From Kondoa subrosea (Eukaryota), in NCBI GenBank assembly GCA_039545335.1, contig BCIN01000007.1, positions 1,170,530 to 1,234,529 on the forward strand: a stretch of DNA of 64,000 nucleotides. Reading direction: 5' to 3'. This document shows, piece by piece, positions 49,202 to 53,828 of the stretch (its first letter is position 1; every line of letters starts with the position of its first letter). Under the pieces are notes generated by a model. The model did no database searches. It had not been told where the DNA came from and was given only the letters and a program-made list of their open reading frames with translations. The position numbers were made by a program, and so were the translations under genes.

Positions 49202-52154
49202 CTAGCCTTCAAGTTCGACGTAATTTGAGGGAAACAAGCCTCTAGATCCGTCTTTGGTCGTTGCAGTCCACCATGCTTCATCCTGTTTGGGAATCGATGT
49301 CAGGATCAGAATAGCCAATTCTAAAATCGCGTACCGTGAATTCAACATCGCTGAGACGATCGCCTTCGTTGAAGCTAATCTCGTTGCCTTCATCGGCGAC
49401 GTAGCTATCGAAAGCCGCACATGAGTCAGATCTATGCTGGAGAAATTATAGCTTACTCATATAAAGCGACACAGAAAGGTGGATTTCCCTCGGTCGCAGC
49501 TGCAGGACGAGAAGCCATTGGAGGTGGTGCTGTAACATTACTTAGCTTAGATGCTGCGCCGAGCGTCGAACTCACGAGGTGCAGCAGGAGCCACCACTGC
49601 TTCTTGCTCATGCTCTTCTTCAGCTTCCAGAATCTCACAGTAATTTGCTGGGAACATCCCGCTTCTCATTCCATCTTGACTGACACCTGAAGCCCAGCCT
49701 TCGTCGATCTGCACTACTTGCTCGATGACTTCACCTTCGATCAAACTCATTTCGTTATCTTCCGCTGCTTCGTACTCATACATGACCAGAGCTTTCAGTC
49801 CAGATGCTTTGTTGTTGGATGATAGGCCTGCTGCTGCTGCTTCTGTAGCTTGATCACTGAGTACGATTTCAGCTTCTCGTCCGGGCTACATTCGAAAGCT
49901 TGATTTACCTAGCAAGAGCAAGCTGATCCAAATGTTTCGTCTGCTGCTGAATTTCCTGAAGGACGCGTCAGCTTTGTTAGTACAAATTGTCTACAAGAAC
50001 AACTTACCTGTTCATCTTGCTCTTTCTGCGACTCAGCTTCCTGATCAGCTAGGCTAGCACCTAGAGCTGCACCAGATAGAGCGCCCGCTGCTCCTGCCGC
50101 TGCCATACCAGGCATAGGTGGTGCTGAAAGGAAAAGTCAGGTCGAACTTAGATCAAATGAGTGAGAAACAAGACGTACGTGGTGCTGTCATAGAAGCCTG
50201 CCAAGTGAGTCAGAGTCAACACAACGTAGAATTTACTTACGAGGTGGTGGTGCTGAATCAAAGGGGAGCGTCAATTACGCGTCCGAAGAGAGATACAAGT
50301 ATGCTTACGAGGAGGTGCAGCTACTGAAGGTTCTGCTTGTGCCGCGGGCATTGGAGGTGCTTTAGTTTGAAGTCAGCTTTGTCATACAAACGCCGTGCAG
50401 AAAGCTTACGTGGTGGTGCTGTAGACAAGGAATTGACGTATCGATGAGCTCAAGAATCTCTCAGATTACTACAAACTTACGAGGTGGAGGAGGAGCTACA
50501 CAGGACGATCAGACTCGAAGTAAAACGATAGTAGAGACTTACGAGCAGCTGTTTCCGGTTCGGGCGCCTTCGCAATTGGCATAGCTGGTGCTGGCACGGT
50601 ACTGTAAGCTTTTGCATCTTAAGAGATGTCTCCAACTTACGTGGAGGTGGTGGTGCTATATCTTTCTGGGTCAATTTATCTCTCTCAAACGAATTGCAAA
50701 ACATACGTGGAGCTGTAAGTCCAAGTTCGGAATAAATCAGTGGGATTCTGATATGCCTCGCTCGACTCACGTGCAGCAGCTTCCTCCTCCTCTTCCTGTT
50801 CCGGCTCATCTGTCGGTCCCAAAGGCATAATCACACTAGATTTCTTTGGTGCAGGAGCAGAACTCAATTCTCTTGATTTCTTATCTTCTTCTTCTGCTAA
50901 TCGTTTCGCCTCCGCTTGTCTCTCACTCCAAGTCATCTTATTTCCAGAAGAGCTGACATTTCTAGAAGGAGCAGTAGAGGCTTCTTCCGCTGCCGAGTTA
51001 CCAGCTGGGTTCCATCGATTACCAAGTTTACCTGGTTTGCCCAATGAAACTGGAGTGTAAGAAGTACCAACAGCTTCCGGTCTCTCTCTTTCGCTTGCTT
51101 TGTTTGCAATAGTAGGAGCAGGAGGTTGAACAGGTGTAGCAGAACGTGAAGAGAAAGCTTTAGGTTCCAAAGCATCATGAGGTTTTACAGTTTCAACTGG
51201 TGCTGAAACGACGTTGGTCGATTGACTTGGAGCAGTAACAGCAGAAGGTCGGGTTAAAGAACTAAAAGGAGCTGAAGGAGTTGTCGTGGGAGCTGGAGGT
51301 GTTGGAATAGGACGATTTTGAGCTGCTCGAATTGAAGCTAATTCATTCTTTACTGGTACGTAAGCTGTACCAACAGGTTCTATAGGTTCTTCTTTCTTTG
51401 CTTTAGCTGTTAAAGAAGCTATATCTGGTCGACCAATAGGTACATAAGCTGATCCAACAGGTGCAGGGGCTGAGGTCTTTTTGGTAGGCGCTTCTTTATG
51501 AATCGAGTACCTTGAACCACCTGACTCTTCTAATCGTTTTCGAATAAGATCAGGAGCTACATCGTCTTCCGTTCGTGCTTGAATAGTAACATGAGCTCCA
51601 GTAAAGGTTTTGGCTACTGTAGCTGCATGAGAAGAGAACAATCCTTTCCTAGCATCTGCTACTCCTTCTCCCATCTAATCCAATACCCTCTTATATCAGT
51701 CTTTGTCATTCAACTGGCTCAAAGTGACTTGGACTGACCCAATTAATGAGGACGAACTTGTTCAGGTTGGAACTTGGATCCGTCACTCGAACATAACCAA
51801 ACTGAATCCGAGAGTCTTCAAACTGATCCTCCAATTCATCCAGACCTCCATTACCGGAACTTGACACTTTCAACTCATTTGATGGTGGAAGTGTGAATAT
51901 AGCCCTTTATTGCGCGTGTTAGCTACTAACAACCCCATTCTGATTGGATAGCACACCATGAGATAGTAGGATCTCCAGATACTACAGTAGCAGATCGAGT
52001 GAGTTAGGTTGGCGTTGCGGAAGTCTGAATTCGAGGAATTACGCACCAATAGCTTGATACTTGTCAGCACAAGCTGTACTTATTCGGACAGTGTTCTATT
52101 TGATCTCCTATGAGCTGCTTTATTCAAGTCCTGCAAAGTTTGACTTCGTACCAT
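49202..52154 (-). CDS. ABP1: Actin-binding protein Abp1/drebrin-like: ADF-H domain, Pro-rich linker, two SH3 domains
   Basis: ADF-H (GGLDELEDQFEDSRIQFGYVRVTDP..KFVLINW.GEGV), SH3 YEYEAAEDNE...GMFPANY and SH3 ALY..DEGNEISF...GLFPSNYVEL. Confidence 0.9.
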
Positions 52155-52236: not shown

Positions 52237-53828
52237 TCACCATTCTTCCATCTCTTGATCAACCATTTCTCCCCTCGCAACAGAATTCACTAATTCCCTC
52301 CGAATTTCAGGTGTGATAGCAGGGTGTGATTTACTCCTCATCACATCTAGCAAAGCTTCTTTCTGTTCAGGTGTCAGATCACTCTTATACCTGTGCACAT
52401 TCGCAACAATTCTTCTATTAGCAATTATGCTGAAGAGAAGCAGGTCGAAATCGCACCTTTGTGCGAAAACTAAGAAAGCTTGATGCCATAAAACAGGTAA
52501 TTCCCTTGGATCCCTCTTGAATCGAATGAAATGGAAGACCAAAGCATCGACGACTTTGAAAGGTAGAGCGTATTTCTTATCCAGTAACACTCGGATGAAG
52601 AGAGAATTCGGTCCTGCTCAAACTTCTTAGTCTAGATCAAACTTAATGCAGGATGGAAAGCGTACCGGTATAATCCATCTCGGCTAATTTGAGAAGAGCA
52701 GCACCGGAATGTAGTACTGGTATACTAACTTTCGACACAACACTTCCAATTATAGCTGCTTCTCTCAAAGTGCAAGTTCCACTCTAATTCTCAAAGTCTC
52801 AATTTTCCATTCATGCATAAGATAAAATAAAGAAGCTTACTTCACAAAGAGGGAATAAGATACCCTTGAAGAAAGCGCTTGGTTTGTACATTGATTTCTT
52901 CAAAGCCATATAAAGTTGTACGCTCAATTTCTTAGTATCGGCAATCTCTTCCCTAACTCGTTCCAATAAGATTTCTCTATAGAATTTCTGCGATTGTTTA
53001 GGGTCTAGATTGGAAGCAAAGATTTTGGTCGCTGCGTAAGTTGCGTGAGGTGTCCAGTTTTCTGGAGCAGTGAGATCGAGAATATTGAGCCAGGAAGGCA
53101 TAGTAGGGAGTATCTTGAACGCTTTGGGTAGAGGACCAGACTTGTAACGGGATAGCAGTTGACCAACTCTGTCAGAAAATACTGGAGGTTAAGGCATATA
53201 AACGCCTAACATCTCAAGCTGTACTGACTTGGTATATACTTCAACGACTTTGTCATTCAGTGGAGGACCATCCTTCTTTGCTGTTTTCTTTGCTTGTACT
53301 TCTTCGTGCTGAGCGATTTTGCCCATGATCATATCTGCCAGATTAACAGGTTGGTCTGCGCTGTTGGGCATGAAAGCATCCAGAGCCGCTTGATCAGCTT
53401 CATCGATGTCCTATCCTATCATCAGCTTGATTGAAACGACCAGCAGAAGACCAATTCACTAGATCATCAAAGTATTCCACATCCTCAATCTCGTCCTCTT
53501 CACTACCATAATCATCCTCTTCTTCCTCCTCATCCTCATCCATACCAGGTCTGGCAGTAGAAGTAGAAGCCTGCCCTTCTTCAACCATAGGTGGTTGATC
53601 CAATTCTTCCCTTTGCTGATCCCTAGCCATTTTCATGATTCTCGCACTAAGGATAGCATCCGCTTGTGCGTTAGATTGCTCAACATGATTTCTTTTAGTT
53701 GCCCTTTTCCCAGATTTACTACTTGAAGTGGATGGGCCAGATAAAACTGAGTCTTCTTTCAATTGAGAAGCTAGAGGTCCATGAGTTCTAGCTCTCTGAT
53801 GCTTGATCGGTTCTGGTGCTCGTCCCAT
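52237..53828 (-). CDS. ENP1: Bystin, 40S biogenesis factor
   Basis: [66 protein letters not shown]. Confidence 0.95.

Follow-up and report, generated by a model that had tools for sequence, protein, structure and literature searches.

Short phase-1 exons dividing the polyproline tracts of an Abp1/drebrin-like gene in Kondoa subrosea, with a possible origin in repeat expansion

Introns carried by repeats and runs of very small exons

The closest described counterpart of the locus reported here is CNN00420 of Cryptococcus neoformans, where, according to the accessible text of the report, repeat expansion copied an intron together with the exon ends in a unit of ~107 nt (Sharpton et al. 2008, PMC2395259). 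The extra introns of that gene are absent from orthologs, and slippage or unequal crossing over was proposed as their source. Same-gene intron duplications are known in fungi, half of them including flanking exon in the part of the study available to us (Collemare et al. 2013, PMC3609843). The exon-intron array of the Abp1/drebrin-like gene examined here resembles CNN00420 in belonging to a basidiomycete gene and in having exon ends plus a whole short intron as its repeat unit, and its introns stand in register within repeated exonic units (3/3, at an ATG offset of 8), as in repeat-expansion gain. However, CNN00420 is described as having exonic repeats of ~39 nt and identical intron copies, whereas in Abp1 the Pro codon is the repeat and the introns have diverged. 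Abp1 also differs from the published account of CNN00420 in having exons down to 6 nt and in that its pattern recurs in unrelated genes.

Very small exons have been described in several other settings. The accessible text of a Coprinopsis cinerea survey reports exons of ≤15 nt in 1,165 gene models (~9%), down to 1 nt (PMC12230235); as in our case, such internal exons are common in an intron-rich basidiomycete, but their omission leads to a premature stop in 835 genes, they are enriched in P450s, and the same text does not mention runs of symmetric microexons in polyproline. Human symmetric exons likewise form same-phase runs in disordered regions, ascribed in the excerpted study to internal tandem duplication (Schad et al. 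2013, PMC3632108). The exons described there correspond to whole functional modules, whereas three introns interrupt a single homopolymer in Abp1. Schistosome micro-exon genes (MEGs) share with Abp1 the runs of very small symmetric exons that are skippable in frame, but the available description has them encode secreted or membrane proteins, consist mostly of microexons, and undergo demonstrated alternative splicing (PMC4350168). Unlike in MEGs, the array accounts for 162 of the 1977 coding nt of a conserved actin-binding protein, in which skipping would be hypothetical, and a secreted or membrane-bound product is unlikely because the N-terminus is an ADF-H domain. Proline goes unmentioned in the accessible text of a plant microexon survey (PMC8831610), and we found no description of symmetric microexon arrays in polyproline among the search results from the open-access literature. 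The likely process is a known one, whereas its form here, with single homopolymers repeatedly cut in two actin regulators, did not turn up in those searches.

The Abp1/drebrin-like gene and its exon-intron array

The window analyzed is a stretch of 64,000 nt from K. subrosea (GCA_039545335.1, contig BCIN01000007.1, forward-strand positions 1,170,530 to 1,234,529), and coordinates refer to it unless another sequence is named. The predicted gene model (49202..52154, minus strand) comprises 19 exons and 18 introns and encodes 658 aa in the domain order ADF-H, long disordered exon, proline-rich region, and two SH3 domains. Pfam searches placed Cofilin_ADF above the cut-off in two exons (E 5.8e-9 and 1.5e-6) and both SH3_9 (E 2.6e-9) and SH3_1 above it in SH3 domain 1; the motifs in the translation of the C-terminal exons presumably represent SH3 domain 2. 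A homolog search returned 30 matches, with ADF-H in 30/30 and SH3 in 28/30. The named homologs are basidiomycete, with rusts ranking highest (the 301-aa exon is 44% identical to its best rust match), and a placement in Pucciniomycotina seems probable. Most homologs also carry Pro tracts at the same position. Abp1/drebrin-like proteins of Puccinia, Austropuccinia, Mixia, Rhodotorula, Rhizoctonia, Mrakia, Wallemia, and Naganishia combine ADF-H, a central Pro-rich region, and two SH3 domains. With the N-terminal ADF-H, the Pro-rich region, and the C-terminal SH3 all present, the predicted protein qualifies by sequence as Abp1/drebrin-like. The gene is single copy, with one match in its own 18.9-Mb genome (G000). 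Yeast Abp1 contains acidic Arp2/3-binding motifs.

In the predicted model, the first coding exon consists of nothing but the start codon (3 nt; 52152-52154, minus) and is followed by a 56-nt intron. Fewer than 100 nt separate it from the upstream neighbor (52240-53500, minus), which we take to resemble bystin/Enp1. Public rust Abp1 models conflict precisely in the Pro-rich region, which is either absent or out of frame (P0002 versus P0005; P0016, P0031, and P0033 versus P0001), hinting at annotation trouble there.

Nine phase-1 introns of 47-62 nt are packed into the Pro-rich region. Half of the 18 introns thus surround 162 coding nt, and the remaining nine are spread across ~1,800 nt. The protein contains Pro runs of 9, 11, and 11 residues (P9, P11, and P11) at residues 383, 406, and 429 and an additional P5. 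In the direction of transcription, the features are as follows.

50771..51674, minus: 904-nt intron-free exon, end of ADF-H and disordered middle; its last base opens the first Pro codon of tract 1
50713..50770, minus: intron 1, 58 nt, phase 1
50707..50712, minus: microexon of tract 1, 6 nt, pure Pro
50656..50706, minus: intron 2, 51 nt, phase 1
50641..50655, minus: microexon of tract 1, 15 nt, pure Pro
50591..50640, minus: intron 3, 50 nt, phase 1
50543..50590, minus: 48-nt exon, end of tract 1, spacer 1, and start of tract 2; ATG 8 nt past the acceptor
50496..50542, minus: intron 4, 47 nt, phase 1
50481..50495, minus: microexon of tract 2, 15 nt, pure Pro
50419..50480, minus: intron 5, 62 nt, phase 1
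50410..50418, minus: microexon of tract 2, 9 nt, pure Pro
50360..50409, minus: intron 6, 50 nt, phase 1, AAG acceptor
50309..50359, minus: 51-nt exon, end of tract 2, spacer 2, and start of tract 3; ATG 8 nt past the acceptor
50253..50308, minus: intron 7, 56 nt, phase 1
50241..50252, minus: microexon of tract 3, 12 nt, pure Pro
50185..50240, minus: intron 8, 56 nt, phase 1
50179..50184, minus: microexon of tract 3, 6 nt, pure Pro
50124..50178, minus: intron 9, 55 nt, phase 1
50008..50123, minus: 116-nt exon, end of tract 3 (ATG 8 nt past the acceptor) and Ala/Gly-rich segment
49576..49856, minus: exon encoding SH3 domain 1 and the first part of a short fourth Pro tract
49530..49575, minus: tenth phase-1 intron to split a Pro codon, 46 nt, inside the P5 tract that lies between the two SH3 domains
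49202..49529, minus: three exons with SH3 domain 2 and the stop, from the translation

An earlier note on this DNA had placed eight exons in the array on the minus strand, all multiples of three and all with junctions splitting a Pro codon as C|CA or C|CT. Each of them lies where it had been placed, preceded by AG and followed by GT, and both the lengths and the junctions were borne out, with phase 1 throughout; the claimed runs of 9, 11, and 11 Pro are read in one 658-aa open frame. The description of the exons as microexons of 6-15 nt fits six of the eight, which also correspond to the Coprinopsis type (internal exons of ≤15 nt between short canonical introns), but not the 48- and 51-nt spacer exons. 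Skipping of any microexon would preserve the frame, as the note had proposed, all eight exons being multiples of three. Intron 2 is the only one of the nine introns with a length divisible by three and lacks stops, so its retention would also be in frame, and intron 3 has a second in-frame acceptor 6 nt downstream (exon start at 50584 instead of 50590). The tenth intron, with an ATG 11 nt past its acceptor, was absent from the original list; together with the P5 tract it looks like a one-intron form of the repeat unit of the array. By eye, the Ala/Gly-rich segment of the 116-nt exon is similar to Mixia and Austropuccinia Abp1.

A blind parser whose score depends only on intronic letters and on the length of the intron, with no credit for proline, recovered all nine introns at three out of three penalties, with a single acceptor moved by 6 nt in frame (to 50584). 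Its weights are generic fungal values set by us rather than trained on RNA. The array scored 33.3; across 300 dinucleotide shuffles (261 parsable), the mean was -26.7 and the highest score 0.1. The intron lengths agree with the genome median of 53 nt, and the donors score 7.4-9.0 on our own scale. As background, we sampled 59 evenly spaced 10-kb genome regions, omitting one region (L166) that had been chosen on purpose. Their densest 700-nt window holds 8 candidate introns, reached by 1 of 834 peaks, versus 9 introns in Abp1. Tandem Repeats Finder did not detect the Abp1 array. As far as the sequence itself can confirm it, the array structure is real and extreme.

Other arrays and uninterrupted tracts in the same genome

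Dense microexon arrays recur in other Pro-rich tracts of this genome, whereas phase-1 symmetry is gene specific. The loci compared are listed below.

L030:3514-6263 = G000 C5:533013-535762, minus: WASP/Las17-like gene, its array at C5:533380-534620
L048:941-2262 = G000 C1:2.7014-2.7027 Mb, plus: C1 array, Pro/Ala tract with ~20 tiny exons
L031:2280-3114 = G000 C3:0.6593-0.6601 Mb, plus: C3 array, Met/Pro tract with 11 introns of mixed phases
L066:4270-4910, plus (C3:1.414 Mb): Pro-rich segment with several short exons, provisional
L067:4420-5120, plus (C5:1.399 Mb): Pro-rich segment with several short exons, provisional
L069:4250-5050, minus (C11:0.008 Mb): Pro-rich segment with several short exons, provisional
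L243 = G000 C5:170495-170583: formin FH1 region, P8-P9 unbroken
L245 = G000 C6:413371-413393: formin FH1 region, P8-P9 unbroken

The WASP/Las17-like gene owes its name to its layout, with a PBD (E 4.6e-9), a WH2 below the cut-off (E 0.0023), and an acidic tail ending in Trp; its N-terminal exon has no Pfam match. Its Pro-rich region contains 16 consecutive introns, 16/16 in phase 1, delimiting exons of 54, 54, 9, 24, 9, 30, 6, 33, 6, 33, 12, 24, 18, 33, and 30 nt. All 15 are multiples of three in the range of 6-54 nt, and the array exceeds that of Abp1 in size. The adjacent 54-nt exons are identical at 35/54 positions, including 18 of the first 19, and the array has two in-frame second acceptors, compared with one in Abp1. 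Its introns showed no excess similarity over the background (score 13.1, p = 0.12). Directly downstream lies what we take to be a calmodulin-like gene with several short exons (L030:2500-3100, minus).

The C1 and C3 arrays were found through phase-0 and phase-2 Pro patterns. In the hand-curated model of the C1 array, 19 introns are mostly in phase 0 yet mixed, and the exons include some of 1, 4, 5, 7, and 11 nt; the probable 1-nt exon (L048:1667) was also chosen by the blind detector. The C1 introns have a mild excess of similarity (14.0, p = 5e-5 on non-independent pairs), and one adjacent pair has 12 nt of core in common; a 5' stretch is also shared by two adjacent introns. Exons of the C3 array measure 18, 18, 9, 26, 8, 15, 7, 19, 19, and 44 nt; four of its introns, all phase 1, fall within a short Pro-Gln-Met repeat, after which the phases are mixed. 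Between them, the two arrays have exons of 1, 4, 5, 7, 8, 11, 13, or 19 nt, which are not singly skippable in frame.

The genome scan for introns in polyproline did not demonstrate a general phase-1 excess; the signal resides in clustering. The phase-1 Pro-splitting pattern had 28 matches versus 15 in the reversed control, and 13 of the 28 fall within two clusters, Abp1 and the WASP-like gene on C5. One phase-0 Pro pattern yielded 22 matches versus 10 in the control, and the phase-2 pattern yielded 12 versus 17. The corresponding phase-1 patterns for Ala (79 matches versus 19) and Ser (110 versus 73) both lie above the 28 for Pro, and by-eye inspection of the 79 Ala matches and 100 of the 110 Ser matches revealed no three distinct donors within 1.5 kb.

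Both formins encode their FH1 tracts in intron-free open frames (607 and 377 aa), with no candidate introns within 450 nt of either tract, and a verprolin-like gene has P10 inside one exon. Runs of eight consecutive CCN codons occur at only 14 sites in the whole genome, which include three formin tracts and the verprolin-like P10, whereas the longest uninterrupted run in the Abp1 array region is 4 codons. The earlier suggestion that the introns interrupt an unstable (CCN)n repeat does not amount to a need: P8-P10 runs are unbroken in both formins and the verprolin-like gene, and runs of 8-20 CCN codons are uninterrupted at 26 of 31 ortholog loci. Interruption of CCN repeats is therefore not required.

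Short exons are common in this genome regardless of what they encode. In the 59 background regions, gaps of ≤24 nt between candidate introns numbered 102, compared with 12 in the reversed sequence, and 43 of the 102 are multiples of three. Polyproline was ruled out as the main source of microexons, with 0/39 high-scoring background microexons reaching ≥55% C.

Repeat units, orthologs, and the origin of the array

The Abp1 array consists of three units of the same makeup: three introns, two microexons of pure Pro, and one spacer. In 3/3 units, the last intron of the tract lies 8 nt upstream of an ATG. Spacers 1 and 2 are homologous (8 identities in 13 columns, permutation p = 5e-5), and exons divisible by three number 8/8 in the array versus 43/102 among background short exons (p ~0.001 if independent). 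The tandem exon-intron duplication that the earlier note had proposed thus finds support at the level of exons, in the three three-intron units, the ATG register, and the spacers, but not at the level of introns. Measured as the mean local score over pairs, the nine Abp1 introns are no more alike than background neighbors (12.5, n = 36 pairs, maximum 20, versus 12.8, n = 349; p = 0.78). These values ruled out near-identical intron copies of the kind known from same-gene duplication, so that the array behaves like such a duplication without being classed as one in the sense of Collemare et al.; intron similarity scores likewise ruled out recent intron copying or an introner family for Abp1 and the WASP-like gene. 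Cross-gene scores were 12.9-13.5 against 12.7 for random pairs, with a median length of 53 nt in both sets, unlike introner-like elements, which are longer and recur in many near-identical copies across unrelated genes. The sequence pattern points to an old duplication of intron-bearing repeats; with copies beyond recognition, the duplication events would have to be old.

Orthologs were drawn from 80 metagenome Abp1 loci, 31 of which were parsed from a conserved motif to the first SH3; we discarded 11 duplicates, 14 loci lacking the start motif, and 24 lacking the end motif. The array occurs in 0/31 parsed loci, a set mostly from distant lineages, with few from the nearest one, and including near-duplicates. 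Six of the loci are close to each other, one is apparently transcript derived, and some five parses are visibly wrong (L075, L116, L130, L143, and L149). Unlike in the Abp1 gene studied here, the tracts of the metagenome orthologs lie in ordinary exons, and 4/31 loci have one intron inside the Pro run, in phase 0 where junctions were examined. Two rust-like loci were unusable for gene structure (L130, apparently intron-free, and L100, which ends before the tracts), and a Naganishia Abp1 isoform pair differing by 5 aa was rejected as tract variation, the difference lying outside the Pro tracts.

We consider it probable that splicing of the array is constitutive and that the array itself is a relic of a repeat expansion that took an intron along. 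The starting point would have been an ancestral phase-1 intron within a short Pro tract. Flanked on both sides by the same period-3 CCN repeat, this intron could have been copied along with a few codons by slippage or unequal exchange, and copying at period 3 would yield exons divisible by three and of a single phase by construction. Triplication of the three-intron unit (spacer and two microexons) may then have followed. Introns of ~53 nt are presumably recognized singly, by intron definition, so that small exons would cost little, and the resulting protein would be an ordinary Abp1 whose P9, P11, and P11 tracts serve as docking sites for probable SH3-type partners. The pattern is all-or-little per gene, as the formin FH1 regions without candidate introns illustrate, and is more readily explained by a local process running away than by a general need. 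Three observations count against duplication. Its direct signature, similar introns, is missing, and great age has to be assumed. The mixed phases and the exons not divisible by three in two sister arrays go beyond what period-3 copying alone produces and need further insertions or sliding. Finally, Ala and Ser contexts are free of clusters, and a Pro-specific factor or mere tract length may be at play.

The missing similarity among introns is what would be expected if they had been inserted independently and had accumulated, or escaped loss, in a permissive disordered C-rich segment, no intron having been copied. The mixed phases of the two sister arrays and the single introns in the Pro runs of four orthologs are also in line with such a history. 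Nevertheless, we regard it as unlikely: identical phases in 9/9 and 16/16 introns would rarely arise in this way (p ~0.001 and 2e-6), intron positions are in register across the repeat units, and the 904-nt disordered exon immediately upstream is intron-free. That selection retained the introns as interruptions of unstable (CCN)n DNA or of a G-rich template strand would explain why the longest unbroken run in the array is 4 codons and why so few genome sites hold eight, but it is very unlikely given the intact tracts in both formins, the verprolin-like gene, and most ortholog loci, and with codons here that are already a mixture of CCA and CCT. There is also a slight chance that the gene model is partly wrong, with fewer, longer introns or some retention and a protein devoid of most tracts. 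The frame survives any fusion of neighboring introns, the 51-nt intron is free of stops, and a published rust gene model omits the Pro-rich region altogether, although a second model from that species has it (P0002 versus P0005). The blind parse, far outside the range of the shuffles, the ordinary intron lengths, and the conserved position of the Pro tracts in most homologs all speak for the model as it stands.

Regulated or stochastic skipping, or the use of in-frame tandem acceptors, could generate Abp1 and WASP isoforms with different lengths and numbers of Pro tracts, a possibility that we find unlikely. Doubtful to the same degree is its functional extension, with binding of SH3, EVH1, or profilin tuned at endocytic sites and exon symmetry being a selected trait. 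The symmetric phase 1-1 exons of both actin regulators (8/8 and 15/15) and their second acceptors are compatible with it; the accessible text on human symmetric exons reports enrichment for disorder and for SH3 and EVH1 motifs (PMC3632108), and schistosome micro-exon genes operate in this manner according to the available description (PMC4350168). Symmetry, however, is also an automatic product of duplication. In addition, the sister arrays contain exons that cannot be skipped singly, the donor scores are high, and the array is missing from all the parsed orthologs. In fungi and protists, retained introns are 37 times as numerous as cassette exons, which make up ~3% of the two kinds of variants combined in the accessible part of the survey (PMC2397502). 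It thus seems hardly probable that the Pro-rich regions of Abp1 and the WASP/Las17-like protein have turned into MEG-like splicing cassettes of 8 and 15 symmetric phase-1 exons, or, with similarly poor prospects, that skipping and tandem acceptors form a combinatorial valency dial for the length and number of SH3, EVH1, and profilin docking sites, in a fungus for which intron definition is the expected mode of splicing. Were skipping real, it would amount to a cassette-exon system of a kind rare in fungi, with the valency of endocytic actin regulators as its target.

Should duplication be the true source, it would provide a self-amplifying route to microexons, whereby an intron in a codon repeat acquires direct-repeat flanks and gets copied. 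Symmetric exons would then arise without selection for skipping, and symmetry would be no proof of regulation. Duplication further predicts that, among close relatives, the count of introns follows that of the repeats. Arrays of this type will defeat gene finders, silently removing Pro-rich regions from protein models.

Some minor features of the background regions and the genome may be added. Microexon runs also occur in non-Pro genes (L163:7759, plus; L167:262, minus-strand index), for example with exons of 12, 18, 33, 11, 6, and 23 nt or, in a transporter-like gene, of 12, 3, 24, 18, and 30 nt. A run of ~100 C with few T is located at G000 C4:1271341-1271448 (L229) and may be an assembly or sequencing artefact.
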